From the NCBI GenBank assembly GCA_024137785.1, contig JAHRHZ010000063.1:21263281-21327280 (forward strand): DNA of 64,000 bases. The letters run 5' to 3'. The position numbers and the translations under genes were made by a program. Positions 1 through 51,129 of this stretch are shown here, piece by piece. The stretch is from Ginglymostoma cirratum. Taxonomy: Eukaryota. The stretch's first letter is position 1, and each line of letters opens with the position of its first letter. A model generated the notes under the pieces. It was not told the DNA's origin. It ran no database searches and worked only from the letters and a program-made list of their open reading frames with translations.

Positions 1-158
1 CGGGCCTAAACCCTTCATCAGAAATCATTTCTGATGAAGGGTTTAGGCCCGAAACGTCAAGTTTTCCTGCTCCTATGATGCTGCTTGACCTGCTGTGTTC
101 ATCCAGCCCCATGCTTGTTATCTCGGATTCTCCAGCATCTGCAGTACCTTTTATCTCT
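1..158. mobile_element. Penelope-like 3' terminal remnant in self-inverted arrangement with minimal hammerhead ribozyme core (left part cut by window edge)
   Basis: Perfect inverted repeat 1-25/27-51. Contains CTGATGA-agggtttaggccc-GAAACGTC. Sequence from ~27 to 158 is the reverse complement of the terminus (~38534-38663) of the GIY-YIG-encoding element. Confidence 0.85.
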
Positions 159-432: not shown

Positions 433-1870
433 TAACAAAGGTCCCAGGACCGACCCCTGTGGCACACCACTAGTCACAGGCCTTCAGTCCAAATAACAAC
501 CATCACCCTCTGCTTCCTACCATTGAGCCAGTTTTAAATCCAATTAGCTAGCTCTCCCTGGATCCCATGCGATCTAACCTTCAAGACTAACCTGCCATAC
601 AGGACCTTGTCAAAGGCCTTACTAAAGTCCATATAGACAACATCCACTGCCCTACCCTCATCTATCTTCTTGGATACCTCTTCGAGAAGCTCTAAAGAGA
701 TTTGTCAGACATGACTTCCCACACACAAATCTATGCTGACTATTCCTAATCACACCTTCATTATCCAAATGTTGGTTGATCCTGTCCCTAAGTACCCTCT
801 CCAATAACTTTCTTACGACGGACGTCAGGCTCACTGGCCTGTAGTTCCCTGACTTGTCTTTGCTATCTTTCATAAACAATGGAACAACATTACCCACCCT
901 CCAGTCTTCCGGAACTTCAGTGGCTAAAGATGAAGCAAAAATCTCTGCGAGGGCCTCTGAAATTTGTTCCCTAACCTCCCACAATGTACAAGGATGGACT
1001 TGATCAGGCCCAGGGGACTTATCCACATTAATGCGATCTAAGGCTGCAAACACCTTCTCTCTGGTAAAATGCATGCTGTCCAAAACATCCCCACTAGTTT
1101 CCCTTATTTCCTTAGCATCCATGATTTTCGCTTCAGTAAACATGGAGGAGAAATATTCATTAAAAATCTCCCCGTCTCATTTCTCTCCATACAGACGGCC
1201 ATGTTGATCTTTAAAGGGACCTATTCTCTCCCTAGCCACCCTTTTACTCTTAATATAGCTATAGAACCTCTTGGGATTACCTTCACCCCTATCTGCCAGA
1301 TCCATCTCATACCTTCTTTTTGCTCTTCTGATTTGGTAACTGTAATTTCCTTGACTTCCTCCATTCCATGACTTATAACTATTTCTGGGATGTTACTTAT
1401 ATCCTCCATTGTAAGGGCAAATGCAAAAAAGTTGTTCAATTCATCTGCAATCTCCTTCTATTCCATTACTACTCCCCAGATTCACTTTCAACAGGACCAA
1501 AGCTCACTTTGTTAACGCTTCTTAACTTTTCTATAGAAATTGTTACCATCTGTTTTTATATTTCCAGTTAGCTTTCTCTCATACCATGACTTTTCCTTCC
1601 TATTAATCCTTTAGCCAATCTTTGCTGTTTTTAAATCCCGTTCACCCTTCTGACCTGCCACCCATCTTTGTACCATTTTATTTCTTTAAATTCAATACTA
1701 ACATTTTTTTAGTTAACTGTGGATGTTAGGGCCTCCCTTGGAATTTATCCATCCTGTGTATTCTGAAATTTCCCCATAAATATTAATACTATATTTCTAT
1801 TCACCTATGCCTAACCTAATTTCCCAATTCATTCTCGCTACTTCTGCTTTTATGTCCTTATAAATGTATC
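433..1870 (-). mobile_element. CR1-clade LINE fragment (ORF2 RT region, decayed)
   Basis: ORF 658-1143 carries CR1 ORF2 motifs KSPGPDQVHP, VPEDWRVGNVVPLF, GNYRPVSLTSVVRKLLE, SQHRFVCGKSCLTNL. It is frameshifted, and more decayed CR1-like sequence continues to ~1.87 kb (possibly a second older copy). Confidence 0.9.
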
Positions 1871-7639: not shown

Positions 7640-9320
7640 GCCACGTCAGAGAACTAAGTGACCTGAAGGTAAAAGAACACTAAGTAAATAGTGACAATAG
7701 CTAATTAGTTTTGCATTGGAATAGTTAAAGGAGGAATCAGAAGTACGAGTAGTGGACTGGAAATGAGTTAATTTCAGTGGAGTGAAAAGGGATCTGGCAC
7801 AAATTAATTGATTGGAAAAATAGCAGATTAAACACAGATCAGCAGTTGGAGATATTTAAATATGGGATAGACAAGGCACTGGCGGATGATGTTCTGATTT
7901 TAGGCAACAAAAATGTGTCAGAGGTTAGGATTCTACATACGTAGCAATTACAGCAAAAAGCACCCTAAAAAGTGACATAAAGATACAGGTTACAAAAAAA
8001 AAGTGATAACCATAGAAGGTGTAAAATAGGAAGGACATGATATAATCAGGTTTAAGGCAGAAGATGCATAAAGCCTGCTGCTGAATGTGGAGAAAAATAA
8101 CAAGGCCTTTATAAGTATCTAGAAACATCTTTGCTTGAGGAGAAAGGGAAAGCAGAGATCCTGAATCGGTATTACTCCCATTTTCTTTTACAGAGGAGGT
8201 TGAAAGTGGAACTGTACAAGGACCTACTGATGTATTCAAATAGTCAATCATAGAAACCCTACAGTATGGAAGCAGGCCATTCGGCCCATCAAGTCAACAC
8301 TGACCCTCTGAAGAGCATGCCACCCAGATCCACCCACCCTATCACTCTGCATTTCCCATAGCTAATTCATCTAGCCCGTACATCTTTGGATTGTGAAACC
8401 GGAGCATCTGGAGGAAACCCATGCTGACATGGGGAGAATTTGCAAACATTACACGGTCACCCAAGGGTGGAATCAAACCCAGTTCCCTTACACTGTGAGG
8501 CCACCACACTGCCCAATGGGACAGAAAATAATATGGTCACGTAGCACAGCTGATGGACATTCCAGAGTACCGAGTGAGTTACAGAGCAGTTAGGGGAAAG
8601 TTGTGTCAAAAGCCAAGCCTAGAAGATGTCAAATATCACATCACTGTTTGAGAAAGTGAAAAAAATAAGCCTGGACATTTCTGGCCTGGTGTGTGTAAAT
8701 GTTGGAGTCTGAAACACTGGATGAAATTCACAAAGATTTTACTAATTGCGGCTAATGAGAGACAGTCAGAAAAGATTTGATGAGTCAAGTCATTCATGAG
8801 TAACTGAATTTTTCAAGGCAGTTGCAGAACATTTAGGTAAAGGAAATGAAGGTTCAGTATGTATAGTAATTTACAGAATGTTAATATCAATAATGTTTCA
8901 TTTAAATTAGGAATCATAGTATAAAAAAGGCAATGTAACTGCATGAACCAAAAGATAATTGGGGGACAAAATACAGCAGAGGGATATATGTTTGGCTTTG
9001 GATTGATAGCATGTTGATAATGTTGTTGTACACAGGGCTTTTTTCTGTAATCCAAAAGAATTATATTGAAACTGCATGATTATAACCTATTAGGAAGGAT
9101 AAGAAATAAAGAGAAAGCATGTTAGAGATAGCCAGTGGACACAGTATACCAGAGCATGCTGACAGATGGCCGAAATAGGGTCTCAGTGCAGAAAAAACGT
9201 GAACTGGTACATTTTAGGAAAATTAACAATGAAAGGAAGTGTACTCCAAATGGTAAGATTCTTAATGGAATGAAGTGAATCTAATGGAAGCTTTCAAATT
9301 TTGAAAAGGAAACATTGAGT
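7640..9320 (+). mobile_element. Highly decayed CR1-like LINE, interrupted by an HE1 SINE
   Basis: Scattered CR1-like blocks (aaggtttaaggcagaag, tctttacagaggagg, agtgcagaaaaaaacgtgaactggtacattttagg, aatctaatggaagctttcaaatt). No intact ORF. Confidence 0.45.
8247..8514 (-). mobile_element. HE1 SINE (V-SINE, elasmobranch)
   Basis: Reverse-complement match to 9864-10186 (gaaaccggagcatctggaggaaacccatgc, gtgagg...ccaccacactgccc) with CR1/HER1-type tail. Confidence 0.85.
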
Positions 9321-9863: not shown

Positions 9864-10186
9864 GACGGTGGCACAGTGGTTAGCACTGCTGCCTCACAGC
9901 ACCAGAGGCCCGGGTTCAATTCCACCCTCGGGCAACTGTCTGTGTGGAGTTTGCATACTCTCCATGTGTCTGCGTGGGTTTCCTCTGGGTGCTCCGGTTT
10001 CCTCCCACAGTCCAAAGATGTGCAGGCTAGATGAATTGGCCATGCTAAATTGCCCGTAGTGTTCAGGGATGTGTAGATTAGGTGGGTTATAGGGGAATGG
10101 GTTTGGGTGAGTGCTCTAAGGATCAGCGTGGACTTGTTGGGCCGCAGGGCCTGTTTCCACACTGTGGGGATTCTACGATCTATGAT
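9864..10186 (+). mobile_element. HE1 SINE (V-SINE, elasmobranch), near full length
   Basis: tRNA-like head GGTGGCACAGTGGTTAGCACTGCTGCCTCACAG...GGTTCAATTCC, V-domain GTGTGGAGTTTGCA...GGGTGCTCCGGTTTCCTCCCAC, tail GGGCCTGTTTCCACACTG. Confidence 0.92.
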
Positions 10187-12145: not shown

Positions 12146-12760
12146 TTACAGCAGTGATTGTGAATCATTGATACATGAAGGGGAGAGAAATCCCACCAGC
12201 AATGCCTGTACGGCATTTTCTGAATTCAATGGGAGGATCTTTGAACAAATGCTAGTGTCCTTCTTCAAGCTAACCCTACAAGCAATCAGGCAAAGCTCCT
12301 GCAAATCATCTACAAATGACTTGATACCATGTCCAGATGGCTGGGGAGGCATCTGGCCAGTCAGGTCCTGTTTCCTCAACTCTCCAATGGCAAGAGTTCC
12401 CAAGGAGAACAAAGAAAATGCTACAAAGACATTTTCATACTCTCCTTTAAGCACAGCAGCATTGACGTTAATGGCTGGGAGGAGCTTGCCACCAACTATT
12501 TGAAATGGTAACATTGTCCACCAAGCTGCATCATTTCTTGAGTCCAAGCACCCTACTGATGAGGCAGTGCACTAGCACAGAAAGAAAGAAAAGGAAGAAA
12601 GTTCTGCATTCTGAATCCCCCTATCTTATGGGAAGTTCTGCTCCATTTGCCCAAAGATCTACAGCCTGTTCAATCATCTGGCAGGAATGGCAGAAATTTG
12701 TAATCCTGAAAAGATATTATTTTCAAATCAAAGAACAGTTGATGACAAACGATACCTCAT
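12146..12760 (+). mobile_element. RTE-clade LINE 3' fragment
   Basis: Translation SQVLFPQLSNGKSSQGEQRKCYKD...IDVNGWEELATNYLKW resembles the RTE/BovB ORF2 C-terminus. Frameshifted. Confidence 0.7.
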
Positions 12761-14575
12761 TAGCCTCATTACTGACTAAAAAGAGAGTCAAAGGAAATTG
12801 GGGCTAAGCAGGAATGAGGAGTTGAAGCTGCAGTCAGTTGAGCCATGATTTTATTGAATGGTGGAGCCCTGTCAAAGGGCTAAATGGCCTATTCTTGGTC
12901 CTAATCCATATGTTTGTATGTAGATGCTTCTAGATGTCCTACGTTGTTCTGTTTAAATGTCTTCTACATTTCTTCCTTTAAATAGATCAGCTATGTCACT
13001 CATGTTATCAGGCAAACTTTGCTGATCTAATTGCTTCTTTGGATTCATGGTGATAGCAAAATTAGAAACACAATCAGACTCACAACATTCAAAAAAATAC
13101 TGCACCATAAAGACATGTTTCACAACTGTTGCATTGGTGTTCGGAAATGTGGATATAACATGATGCATCAGGAATGACATAATGCATTTGCTTAGTATAT
13201 ACACTACAATGCTCGATAATAGTGCGTAGTAACAGCCAAATCAAATTACCACATCCTTGGCACCAAATGAGTGAAATAGCAATTGTAATTGTGAATCATT
13301 GCAATTAGTACTATGTCTGTGTCCTTTGAACATTCACAAAACTATAAAATCATTAAGAATGGATCATCTTAGGATTCTATATGAACTTACTAAAAATGGA
13401 TGATTCTACGCCAAGTCTAATTGTTGGCACATTGCTGACAAATGGAAAGAGTAAAGACATGGCATTTCAAGACTAATATATATTGATTAATTAATTACCT
13501 CCTATTCTTTGAAACTTACAGTAATACAATGAATATCTGAACATTGCAACATACAACTTTTTAAGTTCCTTTGCCAGCATCAATTGACTTATCGTACAAG
13601 TCTAGTTACCTAGGAAAACAAGGAAAAGAATTTTTATTCAAAATTTTTTCCAGCATATCCATTTGTTACAATTTTGTTTAATTAATCTCTCCAAAAGGCA
13701 CAATTTAACAGAAAATACTTCTAAACAATTGTACTTGTGTTTACCAGTGACTAAGTGTAATTTGTATCACAAGACAAATGACAGGAAGACGAATGCTTGT
13801 ATTGAGCACCAAGTTACAAGACTATACTTACAATCTAGTAGTTACAAGTTATACCTGGAACAACATGAAAAACTGTAATGATTAACAGAAGACCTCTGAA
13901 CTGGTCTAATTATATAGACCTAGTCCATTCCTTAGTGTTTCTCAATTCGTATAATATAGAATACGTGCTGTCAGTTAGCAACATCTTGTCCTTACCGGCA
14001 AACAAAAGTTGAACTCAAGAGGGAACACACTTTATAAGCTGCTTGTCAATTTATGCCTTATCTTTTGCAGAAACATTTCAAGGTGCTTCACACACAATTA
14101 ATTCCATACAATTGCACAAACCAGATATTCCCACAGCTATTATGTGCATTGCAATATTCTGCAAATAGTGATCAATCCATTGTATTTATTTTAAAATAAT
14201 ATTGGATTAGGAATAGGAGCCCTGAGAAACCATTGCTGTTTTTCATAGCATGAAGGAGTTTAAATAAGCACAAGACAGTTGATTCTCCTATAAGATTTTT
14301 AGTACTTGCCATATATAAAAGCTTTTGATTTGGAAACTGAAACAGTAGAATGGGATGGGTCATTATTGCTTTGAGATCAACTAGCCACAGTATATGAAAA
14401 GTAACTCAGACATCCTCATTATGTGCTGATCAACCGATTGCAAAATACACCTGTACACACTACATTGCACCACATCAAGGTTTCAACACAGTTTACTGCA
14501 CATTAAAGATACTTATGTGCAAGTGCATTACTTAACAACCAATTAAAGATAGACACACAACTCTATTCATGATAT

Positions 14576-14772
14576 CAGAGATAAAAGGTACTGCAGATGC
14601 TGGAGAATCCGAGATAACAAGCATGGGGCTGGATGAACACAGCAGGTCAAGCAGCATCATAGGAGCAGGAAAACTTGACGTTTCGGACCTAGACCCTTCC
14701 CGAAATGACAAGTTTTCCTGCTCCTACGATGCTGCTTGACCTGCTGTGTTCATCCAGCCCCATGCTTGTTAC
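14576..14772. mobile_element. Self-inverted Penelope-terminus insertion with 15-bp TSD
   Basis: Arms ~14578-14687 and ~14701-14771 are inverted copies. Flanked by direct repeat CTCTATTCATGATAT at 14561-14575 and 14773-14787. Confidence 0.88.
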
Positions 14773-17700
14773 CTCTATTCATGATATATTATGTTCTTCA
14801 AGTATCTGGCAATTCAGAAACTCTGCAAATTTGAATTTTCTGAATTAAAAGTCATTACATTTAAATTTTGGCTCCTGGCATTACTCCATTCTGAGTCAAG
14901 CAAATAAAGTGTTTTGCCTTGTGTCGTGCACAATTGAAGAAGCATAACCTACAAATGACTCAATCTGATTCAATTTGGAAGATGACTCACTGAGCAGGAA
15001 CATTGCACTTTTGGGGTGGAAGGGCAGTAGTTGCAGATGTTATACTCGGGTGTATCTCAAATAATTATTGAATTTCTCATAAAAAATAATCAAGATTCCT
15101 GACCTGTTGCATCCTGGATTTAGTTTCATTGTTTGGTGACTTATTCGTAGCAAAAATAGGTTTCACCAGTGATCAAAGAACTTGCTGCGGAAAATTAGGA
15201 TTGCATTTTGCTGTCTTCTTCAAAATGTTACTCACAGTGAATTTTCTTTAATTGACTCCTGAAAAAAAATTCCATATTAAATTTCCCCTTATTTTCTTGG
15301 AAAGTTGCCAATTTATATTTATTTGCATTCGATTTTCAGGTTTCAATTCATCATCTCATAAACATTTATTAGATTTCCATGTCCATTAACCATTATAAAG
15401 CAAATTCCTGTGCATTTGTATGAAATTTCTAATTCAATCTGTATAAAGTACTTCAAACAATGTACATTCTTCATTCAATACTGCTTAGCCTAAATAAAAC
15501 TATAAGCAAACATTGGATAGTTAATCCATTAGCTATGCAAGATGGATATTTATTCACATCTAAAAAGGTTGCTACCTGACACACACACAAAATTGACAAA
15601 CAAGTAAAGGCCTAACGGTTCCTCATGATGGCTGAAGCATCATGATGCAGCACTTTCTGTTAGAAACATAGCAGCCTATTATTCTATCTAGCAAGTTGGC
15701 ATGTAAGCAGCTAGTTCAGCTGCTTCAGAGGACAGACAAGACTGAAGAACACCACTGTGGGTTAGAGATCACGTACAGGCCACCCTCGGCAAGGATGGAA
15801 GGTTTCCTACTCTAATAGAGATTTGCAAAGCTTTTCCTTAGACCTCAGGCTATTGCTTTCAGTTTTCAATGCTGTTTTGCTACCATCTATAATGTTTTTC
15901 ATTCCACACCTTGCGACACTTCAAATCAGAAAAAGCTAATACACTGGAAATAAGCTAGATGAAAGAAGAATAACAACTTGTCAATTAAAGCAACCAAGGA
16001 CTTAATGCTAGCTAATCACAGTAATATGGTATTTCAAGCATTCCTCACAACCTGCTATGAGATATGATACTGAGCAGGTGGGACTTGAACCCAGTCTTTC
16101 TGACCCAGAGATTCCTTCATACACATACTACAAGAACCCTTACATTGTCAGAGCAACTGACAATGCACATGAATGGTTTCATCTGGTTTAGATTGGAGGA
16201 GACTTTATCTATTTAATCAGTCCTATGAAGATGCATAATTTAGAATATTCTTGTAAACAGCCCATAAAAGGAGATTTCAATATGTTGACTATGTGGTCTT
16301 TTTCCTTTACAGACAAGCTATTTCAAATTCACACATAGAAACAGAAACACCACTCTTAATACCTGTTCCAGTTGTCAACTAATTAATTGAGATTGATTAC
16401 TATAATTAATCAACCACTCCATTCTAATTATATTATGCAACTAGCAGAATGTTAGAAAATGAATTAAGTGGAACTTTTTTCAAATAATAATTCCTATTTT
16501 CTAAAATATATCACATTATGGATGTCTAAGAGTCAATCTGATGTTACCTGAGATTCAGACTTATTATTACTTTTTGACATTCCACCATAGAACATGAATG
16601 TTGCTAGAGCATTTGTTGCCCATCTCTAATTGCCCTTGAGAAAATGCTGATGAGTGTTTCCTTGCACCACTGCAGTCCTTGGAATGTGAGTACATCCACA
16701 GTGCTGTTAGGAAGGGTGTTCCAGGATATGGACCCAACAACAATGAATATAATTCCTACACAGGTAATGGCTTGGATTGGAACTTGCAAGTGCAGATTCA
16801 ATCAATGTTTCTTAATTGAATTTCTGAAATTGCTTACATCTGCATAAAATGGCACAACTCATGACACCCTGATAATCCCAAAGTTGATTAAAGAAACATG
16901 CAAAACAAAATCTTAAAGATTCATTATCCAATAATTTTCAAGGCATATTTGCCTATTTCTGAGAGTTTGGTTGTATTTAAGTAGCTTTTGGGATGTGTTT
17001 TTTTTTTGCAGAAATAGCCATTGTCAGAGTTAGCACAAAAGTGTGTATGCAGAAAAGCTGAGCTCTGAATACTTTTACTACCTGGAAAATGTCCGAGGTT
17101 TTGTGTGAGCTTTCCCCATTTTTCACATGTAGACTGCCGGCTAGAGTTTGTGGTCAAGTGAAACGGCGTCAGTTCACTGTAGCATTTACTTGGATTTCTG
17201 AAATCCAAAGCAAACAATCAAGCAACTTGTGGTTTCTCCCTACCCATTAAAATTAAAACATCTGTCAGTACTGCCAGTCACGTTTATGTTATCTGTCTCC
17301 CAAATGCATTTAAACAGATCAAAAAATATCAATTGAAAATAAAGAAACTAAACTCCTTGCATTTAACTAAACGCAGTTGAAAATTTGGAATGTATCACTT
17401 CAGGCCGAACAGAAAATTAGTAAGTAAACAAAGCAACAAACCCAAACGTCAATCCTCTAAGTTTAATGTTGCCGCTGTGTGCTCCCGATAACTTGGCATC
17501 AATTAGTTTAATCAAGGTCCTGGAACTCGCTGTCTGAGACAGCTCCTTCATTCACCCGAGTGACTGCAGAGCCTTCAGGAAGATGGCCAATCACTAACCG
17601 CTCAAGGGAAACGAGGAACAGGCAGTCTTGCCACAATTCCCAAATCCCAAGGATTTTGTTTAGAAATTACATTGTAATAAGTGTCGTTACATATCGTCAC

Positions 17701-19588: not shown

Positions 19589-20176
19589 ATAGAGTCATAG
19601 AGTCATGCAGCATGGAAACAGACCATTCGGTCCAACTAGTCCATGCAGACCATGTTCCAAAACTAATCTAGTCCCACCTGGCTGCGTTTGGCCGATATCC
19701 ATTCAACCTTTCCAATGCATAAACTGAACCAAATGTCTTTTAACGTTGTAATACTTGCATCCACCACTTCCTCTGGCAGTTCATTCCACACACTAACCAC
19801 TGTCTGTGTCAAAAAAGTTGCTACTCGTGCCTTTTTTAAACTTTATCCTCTTAAAAATATGCCCCCTAGTTTTGAACTCCCACGCTTTATGGAAAAGACC
19901 TTTGTTACTCACCTTGTATATGCCCCTTGTGATTTTATAAACCTGTTTCAGGTCACCCCTCAACCTCCTATCCTCCAGTGAAAAAAGTCCCAGCCTATCC
20001 AGCCTACTTTTATAACTGAAACCTTCCATTCCTGTCAACAACCTGGTGAATCTTTTCTGAACCCTCTCCAGTTTAATAATATCCTTCCTATAACACGGCG
20101 ACCAGAACTGCACACAGTACTCCAGAAAAAGGCCTCACCAACGTCCTGTATAACCTCAACATGAGGTCCCAACTCG
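19589..20176 (-). mobile_element. CR1 (HER1-like) LINE 3' end, relatively young
   Basis: ORF 19793-20113 QFWSPCYRKDIIKLERVQKRFTRLLTG...RLGLFSLEDRRLRGDL...YKITRG is the canonical CR1 ORF2 C-terminus, with a (atagagtc)n tail. Confidence 0.93.
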
Positions 20177-39600: not shown

Positions 39601-40339
39601 CCCAATGGCATCAATGTGGATTTCACAAGCTTCAAAATCTCCCCTCCAGGAGCACAAGGAGAACAGCTTTCAGAAATTAACTGAGTTACCATTAATGGAA
39701 TCCAATAGAATACGAGTGCCATAACCTCCAAATGAGGAACAAGAAATCTACTCTGTTTCTCCCAAAGCTTATTCTCCCCTTTAGTGCAGGCAATCTCCAA
39801 TTATTTGACTACAGAAGCCATTGACACAGAATTGTGACTTCAGGGTCTCACCACTTCTCTTTGGAAGGAAACTTTACAAGCCAGTCATAGGAATGCGATG
39901 ATAAAGGCTTGATCTTACTTTTAACTTTATAAGTATATCTTATCCATAGCCACTTTCAATTTTTGCATCTACAGTTTAGCTAATAACTTTATCACTCTGA
40001 ATAGCTTACATCAGTAATTTTGCAATAAACTAAACTTAAACATATTTAAGTCTAAAGTTCTGCTGGTGTTTATTTTTAAATTGGATTACTTGAAAGACTG
40101 AAAAAAGGGGGTTAAATGAGCCAATCAAATTTACAGCCTATGTACCACATTGTAGACATGCCTGCCATTGTTGTGACATAGCTCTTTGTTGCAATACATT
40201 TACTTGGTTCTAAAATATTTGTGGTATTTATTCAATGACCTCATGGTACCCAATTTTGAAAATTGTCCAAATACCAGTGTTAACGCAAGTGAATAACTTC
40301 CACCTACTAAAATTACTCAAACAATTGAAGAAACGGGCA

Positions 40340-40720: not shown

Positions 40721-41202
40721 ATGTCATGAGGTGTAGGAGGGAAATAAAAATAGATAACACAGCTAAATATGGTACATAAACTGACTGGCCTTTCATTGTT
40801 TCATTAAGACCTCCATGCTTATTGTTCAATACATGATGGCTCATCATCAATTTCATAATCTAGAATTTAACCATTGTGACTTTAAGGCCTGTGAAAAAAT
40901 ATTGTGGCAGTAAGGAATTTGTAAACTGTCATGCAATTTCGTGTTTTGTGCCTATGTTAAGAAATGACAAATGTCAAGGAAGGAACAGAAGACAAGTATA
41001 CTTATATACCATGTTCAGGGTGACATTTTGTAACTGTCTTGTACTTGCCTGATAGCCATTTATTATTACAGAGTGTATAAAGTGCTATTGTACAAGAGCC
41101 ACTTACTTCTGTATCTCTCACTGTGAGCTCATCTCCAGGCAGCTGTGTGAGAAAAAGGGCGATGGTGTTCAGTTCTATAACATCAACATAAACCCACTTA
41201 AA

Positions 41203-41405
41203 TAACAAGGTGTGGAGCTGGATGAACACAGCAGGCCAAGCAGCATCATAGGAGCAGGAAAGCTTGACATTTCGGGCCTAGATCCTTCTCTAGGCCCGAA
41301 ACGTCAAGCTTTCCTGCTCCTATGATGCTGCTTGGCCTGCTGTGTTCATCCAGCTCCACACCTTGTTATCTCGGATTCTCCAGCATCTGCAGTACCTATT
41401 ATCTC
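41203..41405. mobile_element. Self-inverted Penelope-terminus insertion with ~14-bp TSD
   Basis: 81-bp arms 41202-41282 and 41289-41369 (one mismatch) with a 6-nt loop. TAAACCCACTTAAA occurs at 41189-41202 and 41406-41419. Confidence 0.92.
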
Positions 41406-42829
41406 TAAACCCACTTAAAGATGTTTTTGAGTGGGGATGAATCATCTGACGAAACAGGAAAATATATTTAACCACATTATTGCTTGTCAAGCTGTCATTT
41501 CAGACTTTGCAACTCATTGATTGCTTCTTTTTCCCTCAAAGGAAGTCCAATGATCGGGCAATAGAACTACATTGTATTCTGAATTTGGCTCACCATTGGC
41601 CATATTTTGCAAGCATTAATCTAGAGCAAAAAGGAGTTCTATATTCCTGAGATTCATTAATGTTTGGAAAATAATATTACCTCCAATTTTGAAATCATAT
41701 AGTCTCTAATAGGCATGCTTTACTTTGTAATAATAATTGGAATATCCAAAAGATTTCTGGAGTAATAGAGAATATGATCAATAGATTTTGTCACTGTTCC
41801 CTTGTGTGTTTGCTTCCTTTAACCCAGGCTACGAAGGATTATAGTCAGCAATTCTGATCAATTCATAGAATCAAAGGTCGGTTATAGCACAGAAGAAGGC
41901 CATTTGGTCTGTCATGTCTATGCTGGCTTAATGCAAAAGCATTCACTTACTTCCACTCTGCTGCCTTTTGCCACAGTCCTGCAATTTTCTCCTCTACAGT
42001 TAATGATCAATTTTCTTTTAAAAACCAAGAATAAATCTACCTCAAAAATACTTTCAGACAGAAAATTATTATTTGAGCTGTCAACCCTTAACAATTTTAT
42101 ACGCATAGATCCCTGGTCTTTCGGCTTCTACACCCCTTTTAGAATTGTACCTTCTAATTTGTATTGCTTCTCACTACTGTCCTTATCAAATTAATCATTT
42201 TATTCTTCATTATGCTAAATTTCATCTGCCCCTTGTCCTTCCATTCTTTCAACTTAAGTCCCTTGGAAATTTAACACCATCCTCCTAACAATTCATACTA
42301 CTTCCAAGTCTTAAGTTATGACATCCTCATTACTGTTGTTTGCTTAATGCATTAATAAGGGTCATTAAGCCATTACAATTCAGACATAAGTTCATTTCCA
42401 TCAGTGAGAATTATCTGCTGGTTATTTTCAAATCAAGGATTTTAGTATGTATGGTTCCTACTGTTTGAAATGATACAAACATGCAACTAGTCTCCACAAC
42501 TGATGACTTGCTATAAAATATTTTTATTTACATTTTTGTGTGCTTTCTGTGCTGTACCTCCTTCTTCGAACCGTTATGAAATATACCATACATTTTCAGA
42601 CAGACAGGTTTATCACCTTTCCCAAGTTTTCTATTTCAATATAGAGCTTTTTAAATTCTTAAAACATCAACTAACATTTAGCAATGAAATTGACATTGAG
42701 TCAAAATTATATAAAATTCTATTGCATGAATTTACTGATCTAAGCATATTTTCTCCATTCTAGCACCACCAGCTTAGTTAAGTGATGCATTCATTCATTT
42801 ATTGCACAAACCTCCAGAAGAACATGTTA

Positions 42830-43565
42830 CACAGGATTTACAAAACAAACAGACCACTAGGTGCAATGGTTCTATGTAAGTGTTTGCGCTCCACACGAGC
42901 CTCTTCCCAATCTAGCTTCATTGCCTCACTCTATTAACATGTATTTCACTCCTTACTCCCACGTATAAAGAATGGATCTTTCCCCCAAATGCATCTTTGC
43001 TGTTCATTTCAACCATTGCATTTGATAACAAGTTTTATATTCTTACCACTCTCTCAGTTAAAATGTCTCCAATTGAATTCCTATATCTTATGATCTCTGG
43101 TTTTGGTTTCCCAGAAAAATGGAAACATCTCTACCTTTACTTATAGACCCCCTTCATAATTTTAAAGACATCTATTAAATTATTCTCAGTCTTCTCTGCT
43201 CCTGGGAAAAGAGCTCCAACATGTTCCATAATAGGAACAAAGAAAGCTGGGAAATTTCAGTAGGTCAGGCAGCATCTGTTGAGATAAATCATAGAATCAT
43301 AAACAGAGTTTAAAATTTTAATTTGATGACCTTACTTCAGAACTGTTGAACTGATTCCTCTCCAAAGCTGCTCCCTGACTTGCTGAGATTTTGTTTCTAG
43401 CCTTTTTGTCCTCATTTCGGGTTTCCAGCATCTGCAGTATTTTGCTCTTGTCCATCCTATTTAAGCCTTTCTGAGAGTTCTATCCTTCCAGTTCTGGTAT
43501 AGTCCACGCAAATCTTTTCTGCACTTTCTCTGGTGCTTCCATCTTTTCTTTATAACACGGACTAA
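42830..43565 (-). mobile_element. Decayed CR1 3' fragment with an old self-inverted Penelope remnant inserted at ~43230-43450
   Basis: CR1-like ccccttcataattttaaagacatctattaaat and aatcttttctgcactttctc flank ggtcaggcagcatct...ctgacttgctgag...tttccagcatctgcagtattttgct. Confidence 0.6.
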
Positions 43566-48500: not shown

Positions 48501-48899
48501 TGTTTTGTTTACTTTATAACTCGACGCACAGTAACAAGCTTATTAAAACAATCACAGCGGCGACAAAAATGTGAGTTTTCTTTTAGATATGAATAACTTT
48601 AATATTTAAGTAACAACAGAATCGACACTAAAACAGTCACAATTTTATTCCCATTTCACTTTGGACACAACTCGCAACAGCACCTTAGGACAGCCAGGCA
48701 TTGGACAGACAGAACTGTATTAAGTCAGTGATGTCATCTGAATAAAAATTGACCCATGTTCTACCTATCACTTTCTTTCCGACTGCAATCACAGTGCAGA
48801 ACTTTTAACACAGAGAATGGAATAGATGTAACAGCCCCATGTCTGGAACACCACATTAACAATCAGTTAACATCCGCTCGCTCTGACACCTATCCACAA

Positions 48900-49210
48900 T
48901 TAAAACAAAAAATAAACTCATCAAATGCTCGTGATGGAGGCCATTTGAACAATCTTGCGCTCTGGCGACGGGTCTAGCGGCACAGATTGATTCACGGATG
49001 AGCTCCTTTTGGAGAGTTGTGCAGTTTGAAGAGAGCAAGGTAACACCTGGCTCTGTTTTAGCGGCGCTTGCCTTTGCCGAGAGACAGATAAGGGGCAGCG
49101 CGACCTTTCCAGCGCTTCCTTGGAGAACCCTGGTCGGTTGCACGGTTTCAGAGCTCCCACCCCCTAATAGCAACGGGTTGCATCATTAGCAAAACACTTT
49201 TCCCTCATAG
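48900..49210. promoter_or_regulatory. Candidate conserved element ~2.1-2.4 kb upstream of P0
   Basis: CpG-rich unique block with GATTGATTCACG (Pbx/Pax-like), GATAAG and GTTGC/GCAAC half-sites. The position is comparable to a reported second P0-proximal pancreatic element. Confidence 0.35.
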
Positions 49211-51129
49211 TTCCCCTTTTAAAAAAAATCTGTTGAAATAGTCACTTCCTGCTATACTTGCCAACATATTGTTCCACCAGATCCACAGTGGGAACAAACA
49301 CTACTTGCTTCTGTTTCCTTTCAAACACACACATTTATTTTAAACGCCTTTTGCTTCATTTAGGCCGATTTAGAAAAGTGACAGAGTATCCTACCTTTAA
49401 TAAAAACGAGGACAAGCCTGAGCAAGGACTTCTTAGAGGTGAATTTGGAACAATGAACATTCTCTCGTCACCGTAGCATTGCAACTGGTTGCATAAATCT
49501 CCAATAAGAAATCTTTTTTTCCCTAAATCAGGAACGCAGTGTGTTTTCGCCGTAAATTGCCCAAATGGGTCAGATTTGTCCTTCAGTCCCTCAATGCAAC
49601 TTTCATAGTGAAAGTCAGGCTCGTTCGGAGCACAACGTAGTTGCGGAATCAAGACAGTGAAACACGCATGAAGATCATTTTGCTGGAATGGTTCATGAGA
49701 AACCGCAAACCGTTGCTGAGAATGGAGGGTGTGAGGAAAGATCCTAATAAATTATTTACTCAACAAAATGTGTATAAATAATGGTCTTTGTGAAAACCAG
49801 CAAGACTGCAGGAAGTATGAGAGCGTGGTAAATTAAATGTCCAAACAGGCTGATAAATATTGTAAAGATAAATGTGCAAATGCACGCATTAAAGCTGATT
49901 AGAATTAACCAGCAAGAGATCAAAATACATATATGAACATGTATGTGCAGACACAATGAGGCCAATATATGCACGTGTCCTATGATTTTACATCTTTAAA
50001 CCAAATAATCCCGGATGTTCCTTTAACGATGAATAAGGTTCAAATGCATAAGTTAATTGTAATGAAGATATGCAAAGGTTTGCGCAGCTCGCTTTCAAAT
50101 CTTCCTGTATTTTGTGATATTCTGAAGAATAAAGAGAAAAAATGATTTTATTACAGCGCGTTACAGTAGACTGGAAATGTAAACCTTGATTTTATTCCTC
50201 TTGACAAGTATTTAAGACATTTTCATAGACTGTGTGTGCAATGGGTGTACTTTTCAAAGATAGGGGGTCAGGTAATACAGTTGGAGGGGTTACACTTTCG
50301 ATCTGTTTTCGCTGCGCTAAGGCTAGTTACCGTTTTAATGAAGGTATCCAGCCAGAAGCAGAAAGTTGATTTTTCTACCTGACTGAACCCATTCAACAAA
50401 CAGAACGGAGAACCAATGGATCAATGTTTACTTTATTGGTGACTACGGACTAAATCACGGAGACACGGCCGTAGACCTGAGGTGAATGATAAATTATATC
50501 AAGCAATTATTAGTTCTGGTGAATGTTTTCCCACTTAATGTCAGACTGTGGGACTTAATTGTGTGAATAATTGTTATATGAGGTCTGGTGTCTAATACTT
50601 CACACCAGATAAACATCACTTTCTTTACCCTGAAATACATGTGTACCACAAAGCACCCTTAGAAATATCAAAATAGGAAACATGCTGAGCAAAAATAATT
50701 CGCTGACAGGGAGTTCCAGTGCTAGTTTAAAATGTACTATTCTTACTGAATAAATGCAGTTTTGGAGTACACATAGAATCTGTCATTAAAATATCGCCAC
50801 AGTGCAAGTTTGCAGAATTCGCCGCTCCCATTCGTATGATATATCAGATATAGACTTTGGGACATATTTGCATATTCATATATTTATATAATGATGACTG
50901 AATCCATTATGCTGCCATCAACACTAATCTGAGTCAGAACTATGAAAACTTTATGGACTCATTACTTGCAATGTTGCTTTAGGATAAATGGCCTTATAAG
51001 GGAAACAACGCGAGGCCATTCTTTTCTTAAAGGGACATCGTAACGTTGGCGTAAGAAAATAATTCTTCAGCATTCACTGAGTGCTTCCGCACTTTCTGTA
51101 TGTCACAACACGGCGTTTCTTTAACGGAA

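Follow-up and report, generated by a model that had tools for sequence, protein, structure and literature searches.

Head-to-head hairpins of a Penelope-like element in shark DNA: probable one-off integration products whose arms stop just upstream of the hammerhead cut site

How does a retroelement come to leave, repeatedly, short hairpins in which its end faces an inverted copy of itself close to a ribozyme? Five such insertions lie within a 64-kb stretch of shark DNA (hereafter the window, meaning the whole stretch analysed), and the first-pass annotation had offered two answers: a non-autonomous hairpin family, or a stereotyped integration product in which reverse transcription folds back near the ribozyme. 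The origin of the inverted repeats and one-sided tails of Penelope-like elements, and in vivo cutting by their minimal hammerheads, are stated to be open in the available parts of the literature (PMC8557442, PMC11167929, PMC4209133).

A profile search of the window found eight loci, to which the counts of copies given here refer: the short hairpins A, B, C, D and F, the long inverted copy E, and the solo ends G and H (Table 1). Copy G is itself part of the search profile and its E-value is not independent; H, which is not in the profile, matched it with an E-value of 6e-4. The element is numbered on the long copy, read on the minus strand, where +1 is the first base after GAAACGTC (window position 38633), +100 is the common 3' end (38534) and the CTGATGA box begins at -28. 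The five hairpins listed by the first-pass annotation are all real, but the long copy and both solo ends had been overlooked.

Table 1. Penelope-like loci in the window and their parts; signed numbers are element positions
Feature	Window position	Strand	Description
Copy A	1..158	+	centre an almost perfect palindrome with a loop of 1 nt at 26; -32 is the start of each arm
Copy A, full arm	27-158	+	minimal hammerhead intact, with CTGATGA at 31-37 and the cut site following 58
Copy B	14561..14787	-	TSD 14561-14575 and 14773-14787, 15 bp
Copy B, full arm	14577-14699	-	-23 to +100
Copy B, tail-less arm	14699-14772	+	-11 to about +63
Copy C (older)	35218..35446	+	TSD 35218-35229 and 35435-35446, 12 bp
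Copy C, short arm	35230-35295	-	about -31/-34 to +33
Copy C, full arm	35304-35433	+	about -32 to +99; about 8 nt of filler between arms
Copy D, left TSD	41189..41202	.	14 bp; final base also fits arm
Copy D, tail-less arm	41202..41288	-	about -23/-24 to +63
Copy D, full arm	41289..41406	+	-17 to +100; without CTGATGA box
Copy D, right TSD	41406..41419	.	14 bp
Copy E	38522..39662	-	15-bp TSD 38522-38536 and 39648-39662; 3' end 38534
Copy E, hammerhead core	38634-38661	-	sequence motif
Copy E, GIY-YIG endonuclease	38878..39198	-	C-terminal 106 aa of Penelope-like ORF, open to stop; gap cuts upstream part
Copy E, inverted arm	39601-39647	+	ends at -290
Copy F (oldest hairpin)	43230..43450	+	no TSD detectable
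Copy F, tail-less arm	43230-43345	-	carries hammerhead core, extends to about -33
Copy F, full arm	from about 43346	+	begins at most about 3 nt from cut site
Copy G	31308..31440	-	old solo end without inverted partner, starts at about -32
Copy H	about 37790..37890	+	old solo fragment ending near tail site; upstream end uncertain

The hairpin at 41 kb illustrates the architecture. The inverted-repeat search returned arms of 81 nt that are 99% complementary and 6 nt apart, as had been described, and the duplication of about 14 bp reported around them is an exact one of 14 bp; folding of the whole insertion (41189-41419) gave -169.5 kcal/mol (z -24.9). In all four short hairpins in which this could be tested, only one arm extends as far as the common 3' end, the second being shorter, in agreement with the first-pass annotation. 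An inverted, 5'-truncated copy adjoins the 5' end at six of the eight loci (A-F). Copy A, whose left arm is truncated by the window edge, is identical to the long copy over its terminal bases (131/131). Side by side, the two arms of B (14699-14775 against the long arm) differ at 4 of 76 sites, two of them T>C, and those of D at 1 of 81, a CpG; the long arm of B is 98% identical to A and E, and the centre of C (35296-35303) holds a short additional reverse copy of the CTGATGA box between the arms.

Exact target-site duplications (TSDs) were found at four of the seven testable loci (B, 15 bp; C, 12 bp; D, 14 bp; E, 15 bp), whereas an exact match of at least 12 bp occurred in only 1 of 4,949 random flank pairs. 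The lengths of 15 and 12 bp given earlier for the insertions at 14.6 and 35.2 kb hold exactly. The statement that each hairpin carries its own duplication is borne out for three of the five named copies (B, C and D), but the window edge truncates A, and F, which is old, has none. Comparison of the flanks found no TSD in the old copies F, G and H; around F no exact match exceeded 5 bp, and the best 12-mer agreed at 8 of 12 positions, which is the mode of the null. Three of the four TSDs are 67-73% AT, and none of the four is a simple repeat, microsatellite insertion bias being a tendency reported for Neptune.

The long copy points to the source of the hairpins. Its endonuclease fragment is identical at 97 of 106 aa (92%) to P0001, a whale-shark protein with reverse transcriptase (RT) and endonuclease (EN), and is 87% identical to a zebra-shark protein, P0002; these closest relatives point to a carpet shark as host. 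In P0001 the RT precedes the GIY-YIG domain; Pfam placed GIY-YIG above the cut-off and RVT_1 below it (E 9e-5), and the protein also has YCIRCTRCGFLYIG, CCHH cysteines and a CX4CxxC linker. This linker reads CNRRKCYTC in P0001, is degraded in P0002 and lies outside the window copy, from which a 400-N gap (39201-39600) removes the RT; the 106-aa fragment alone had no Pfam match. A CX2-5CxxC linker before the EN is described as marking Neptune and Nematis rather than Penelope or Poseidon (PMC8557442). Judged by its sequence, the element is an EN+ Penelope-like element, probably of Neptune type by a linker motif that Nematis shares. The Penelope-like origin proposed by the first-pass annotation is supported by this GIY-YIG endonuclease tail and by the identity of A to E. 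The long copy folds inside the gap, beyond -567, and folding at the ribozyme is therefore a property of the short class only. The claim that the fold point always lies at the hammerhead applies to all five short hairpins, but not to this sixth inverted insertion, which folds more than 560 nt upstream.

Most of the architecture is a known Penelope-like signature. Complex insertions of EN+ Penelope-like elements have been described with an inverted, 5'-truncated pLTR, a one-sided tail of 30-40 bp and a TSD (PMC8557442; PMC3846280). With these, as far as the available text describes them, the loci in the window share head-to-head terminal repeats, a palindromic junction, a TSD, a minimal hammerhead, a partner with C-terminal GIY-YIG, a tail confined to a single arm (35-37 nt for B, D and F) and an assembly gap at the inverted long copy. 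They differ in lacking the body and in having arms that end sharply upstream, at -31 to -35, and their TSDs measure 12-15 bp compared with 8-10 bp in the rotifer examples. What is added here is that the arms stop sharply before they reach further than about 35 nt from the cut site on its upstream side. In Schistosoma mansoni, too, minimal hammerheads occur as close pairs on opposite strands, which were read as truncated elements; those pairs are 100-700 bp apart, whereas in the hairpins the cores abut and are often clipped (PMC4209133, in the part available). In our survey of the open literature, neither Penelope mini-hairpins of sharks nor an explanation by run-off had been described, and no account appeared of hairpins that lack the body and stop abruptly upstream at a promoter-like site; subscription papers may cover part of this. 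Pattern scans returned no further copies in metagenome contigs or in genome contigs. The gapped-pattern matches (9 viral and 10 metagenome loci) were dismissed as chance matches, since none of the 19 was BLAST-similar to the element at E 0.01.

The outer ends of the arms are the first clue to how a hairpin is built. Tail-less arms end at about +63/65 in three of the five copies (B, D and F), at +33 in C and at -290 in E. The one-sided tails accordingly measure 35-37 nt in the first three, 67 nt in C and 390 nt in E. Both outer end sites coincide with a TTATCTC motif in the young family, and folding detected no conserved stem-loop at the two sites (z -0.19 to 1.51). In vitro, the green anole Poseidon element PAc cuts and extends both target strands from two internal start sites that bound the tail; its protein is predicted to act as a dimer and uses uncleaved RNA (PMC11167929). 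The two systems would share internal starts bounding the tail and the cutting and extension of both strands; AT-rich targets are common to both, as is an ATG inside the CTGATGA box, the frame of which in the shark element closes after 13 codons. They differ in clade, the linker of P0001 pointing to Neptune or Nematis, and the available text on PAc discusses neither hairpin products nor run-off ends (PMC11167929).

By analogy with this work on another clade, it is fairly likely that the observed ends reflect two primers. The element protein would nick both target strands 12-15 bp apart, the spacing recorded by the TSD, and each nick would prime a cDNA at an internal start site on the RNA, one at +100 and the other usually 35-37 nt earlier, which would leave the tail on one side. 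Since initiation would be internal, it could occur on the transcript's 5' terminal repeat, where the RNA begins no more than about 130 nt away. From there each cDNA would be extended until its template ended, at an RNA 5' end set by a TATA-like and initiator-like promoter about 32 nt before the cut site, and the 3' ends of the two would be joined head-to-head with the loss of 0-25 nt. That the ribozyme lies close to the fold would mainly reflect its position immediately behind the start site. Priming on the 3' repeat would give rise to long copies such as E, which would fold at unrelated places.

The junctions bear on whether one cDNA or two were involved. Given as full arm/short arm, they lie at -32/-32 in A, with a 1-nt loop; at -23/-11 in B; at about -32/-32 in C, with filler; at -17/about -23 in D; and at about -1 (-2 to +1)/-33 in F. 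The overlap at the junction is about 1 nt in B and D. One alternative is that a single cDNA from +100 stalls in or just past the ribozyme, snaps back and copies itself, with EN or repair trimming the second strand at the tail site. Snap-back would explain why both arms of a copy carry the same variants, and the tail has been ascribed to EN-mediated resolution (PMC8557442, in the part available). However, a cDNA from +100 that snaps back must put the unpaired centre on the full arm, which fits B (full arm to -23, short arm from -11) and not D or F. In these two the tail-less arm extends further upstream than the full arm (-23/-24 against -17 in D; -33 against about -2 to +1 in F), while A and C are near-symmetric. 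The 1-nt loop of A and the overlaps of about 1 nt also speak against snap-back, as does the bounding of the tail by two RT start sites in vitro (PMC11167929). We consider this alternative unlikely. In its simple form, the earlier proposal that reverse transcription folds back near the ribozyme is accordingly doubtful, the extra centre being on the tail-less arm in two of the three asymmetric copies. All five short hairpins can be explained if a pair of cDNAs was joined at their ends, in a test weakened by possible later deletions at the palindrome centre.

The farthest upstream points of the arms are -32 in A, -23 in B, -32/-34 in C, -23/-24 in D, -33 in F and -32 in G. Thus, in this small sample, no short locus extends beyond -35, four of six reach -32 to -34, two stop at -23, and no end falls between -35 and the long copy E. 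An exponential-truncation null for seven loci (H left out) gave 7e-7 when the bin was fixed and no more than 0.025 when it could be placed anywhere. Near the ribozyme as the fold is, the hard limit of the arms is thus 31-35 nt upstream of the cut site and not the cut site itself, a refinement of the first-pass annotation.

Reads of relatives were aligned on 38500-39200: RNA from run X23 (poly(A), unstranded), run X24 with only 45 aligned reads, and DNA contigs from X1 and X5. No run listed contained half of the words, and the runs were taken as relatives because their best word share, 0.24, equals the element's share of the stretch. Among the best 15 of 251 joints in X23 by read support, 11 change strand; seven of these 11 (761 of 1,009 reads, counted in a related species and weighted by expression) have their upstream side at -27 to -35, and the other four at +5, -220, -388 and -426. 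Symmetric joints at -31/-31 and -32/-32 had 98 and 76 reads, and one X23 joint type also occurs in the DNA contigs of X1 and X5. Read depth in X23 was 10,891 at -16, 1,999 at -32, 2,467 at -49 and 3,708 in the coding part, a step that coincides with a 39-nt indel and a low-complexity tract, both of which also break alignments. In the DNA contigs of X1 and X5 the depth sums, which are no copy number, show no step at 38665 (about 2.5 million on either side). No place where many molecules begin or end was called in the unstranded X23 reads.

A candidate promoter lies next to the limit. The 39-nt segment is missing in E, whose 3' UTR is pyrimidine-rich, and is present in the relatives (725 reads in X23 and 9 in X24; loose ends in X1 and X5). 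The relatives have an A at 38665 (-32) in 1,012 of 1,073 first-mate reads, where E has T. Counted by hand, TATTTATT stands at -31 to -24 from this A, which itself lies within CCATTTC; the textbook elements are TATAWAAR at -31/-30 to -24/-23 and YYANWYY around +1 (PMC4581360, Table 1). The TATA-like motif, noticed after the fact, matches TATAWAAR at five of eight positions. Strict YYANWYY occurs in the right arm of A and the left arm of C, and not in F, G or E. The 213-nt UTR of E has no other TATA-like 6-mer, the frequency of which in the window is 0.56% per site; E, without the TATA-like segment, is still identical to A downstream. In the read-through tail of zebra-shark P0002, I-Y precedes L-M-K-G by nine codons, which with the codons inferred is the same spacing within 1 nt; a second protein search for further read-through tails returned P0002 only. 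Promoters within terminal repeats have precedents in rotifer Penelope, with a TATA and Inr pair (PMC3846280), and in a Drosophila element that starts in its own repeat (cited in PMC8557442). For arms that stop sharply at a promoter-like site, the simplest reading is run-off at the RNA 5' end, a reading with about an even chance of being right, given that the start site is deduced from the motifs.

The limit could also have arisen otherwise from two cDNAs, if -32 were an RT stop at the C-rich tract (G-rich in the cDNA), a splice acceptor, or the edge of helix I on its 5' side. The limit does fall where a long pyrimidine tract ends and where helix I has its 5' strand, and the intron of D. virilis Penelope has its 3' end at the 5' end of helix I (PMC4209133, in the part available). 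However, the arms of C and F keep a CAG that a spliced template would lose, the young family lacks an AG at this point, the tract is crossed by E and other long copies, and a TATA-like motif stands at the expected distance. Such a stop or acceptor is, in our judgement, a poor candidate beside run-off from a promoter.

Their junctions and sequence backgrounds bear on whether the hairpins multiply. The first-pass annotation proposed to tabulate fold points, unique ones indicating de novo formation, and in the window no two of the five short hairpins have the same junction. The hairpins also represent three or more sequence backgrounds, and both arms of each copy carry that copy's own variants. 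Distinct junctions on different backgrounds form the pattern of independent formation. A family of non-autonomous hairpins copied as a unit by a Penelope-like protein, the first of the two original proposals, is thus left without support and appears quite improbable. Each hairpin does have the presumed cis sites, symmetric joints recur in X23, and one joint type is found in both DNA runs. But symmetric joints are also expected of independent run-off, outer ends (+63, +33) and backgrounds differ as the junctions do, the upstream motif is lost, and a perfect hairpin would bury its cis sites. The shared junctions and termini expected of a SINE- or MITE-like replicating family were not found in the window, where TSDs measure 12-15 bp; in the hairpins the repeats are not terminal on both sides. 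The second proposal, a stereotyped integration product, is supported. Each hairpin is very probably a one-off product, formed de novo by an EN+ Penelope-like element, probably of Neptune type, and dead on arrival; without the upstream TATA-like motif it could not restart from its own promoter.

A last alternative, self-priming on an antisense transcript as proposed for palindromic head-to-head junctions in PMC3846280 (in the part available), could draw on the TATA-like segment, which reads AATAAA on the other strand and could end an antisense RNA nearby, but we think it very improbable, since it predicts a self-complementary primer at the junction, where B and D overlap by about 1 nt and A has a 1-nt loop, and the template in vitro was sense RNA (PMC11167929).

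Non-LTR retrozymes resemble the hairpins in being short, in coding for nothing and in deriving from terminal repeats of Penelope-like elements that contain type I hammerheads, but are head-to-tail tandems with a hammerhead per unit (10.64898/2026.07.22.740005, as far as available). No such tandem was found in the window, where all pairs are head-to-head and the core is lost in B and D. Taken as a whole, priming from two nicks, run-off and head-to-head joining is the explanation towards which we lean. It resembles the twin priming of L1, where a cDNA is started from each of the two nicks in the target and the pair is fused head-to-head, with little overlap, between the TSDs. L1 arms are consecutive parts of the RNA ending in poly(A), whereas hairpin arms copy the same stretch and have no poly(A).

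The ribozyme itself is a minimal type I hammerhead in A and E, with CTGATGA, one unpaired base, a stem II closed by G-C and GAAACGTC, the form described for Penelope-like elements (PMC4209133). The core had been reported as intact in A and partly deleted at 14.7 and 41.3 kb, and neither arm of B or D does retain the CTGATGA box. With about 3 pairs, helix I is weak; minimum-free-energy folds do not yield the ribozyme, and Rfam returned no hammerhead match at E 5; its matches to microRNA hairpins, all below threshold, were dismissed as generic hairpin scores. In the old copy F, the core had been read on the plus strand. The minus-strand reading of its centre exceeded all 300 shuffles when compared with copies A and G, and the plus-strand reading failed the same test.

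None of the young copies (A, B, D and E) ends at +1, in line with uncleaved RNA as the main template in vitro. Ends near the cut site occur in F, in an X5 DNA-contig joint from 38668 to 38633, the kind of which was not displayed, and in three X23 joints at +5/+6 (190 reads, with partners at -31/-35). The X23 joints may be cut-site ends or alignment breaks at a 1-nt indel at 38632, where 3,065 reads have loose ends. Together these cases hint at a minority of templates ending at the cut site. If so, the junctions at F, at +1 in X5 and at +5/+6 in X23 would be in vivo evidence of ribozyme cleavage and of reverse transcription of cleaved RNA. More tentatively, the hairpins could be regarded as 'double strong-stop' DNAs, in which a dimer primes both target strands on the 5' repeat and the junctions record the RNA 5' end in thousands of copies and, in a minority, the hammerhead cut site. 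If junctions do mark template 5' ends, any shark genome would be a natural data set for testing the two-primer model, mapping the promoter and counting cleaved templates; if they do not, the hairpins are ordinary truncated copies in a known arrangement.

In shark transcripts, long double-stranded RNA may often originate from such hairpins. Over 38500-39200, A>G or T>C differences were seen at 208 places in X23 RNA and G>A or C>T at 144, compared with 60 and 81 in the DNA contigs of X1 and X5 (Fisher p 0.001); the excess could be A-to-I editing of hairpins, in runs that differ in organism and data type. In X23, a joint going back 112 nt (38543-38654), seen in 47 reads, suggests that a relative has this terminal unit in tandems arranged head-to-tail, as in retrozymes. 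Elsewhere in the window, a Pfam search of 21 of 38 long open frames matched only a LINE-type RT fragment, at 658-1176 (minus strand; RVT_1, E 2e-6). A second LINE-like fragment (19793-20134, minus strand) and three host-exon-like open frames of 108-141 aa on the minus strand (12146-12571, 48856-49182 and 49356-49751) had no Pfam match. Another repeat forms an inverted pair about 1.5 kb apart (8351-8459 and 9937-10050; 77-84% complementary), probably two SINE copies.
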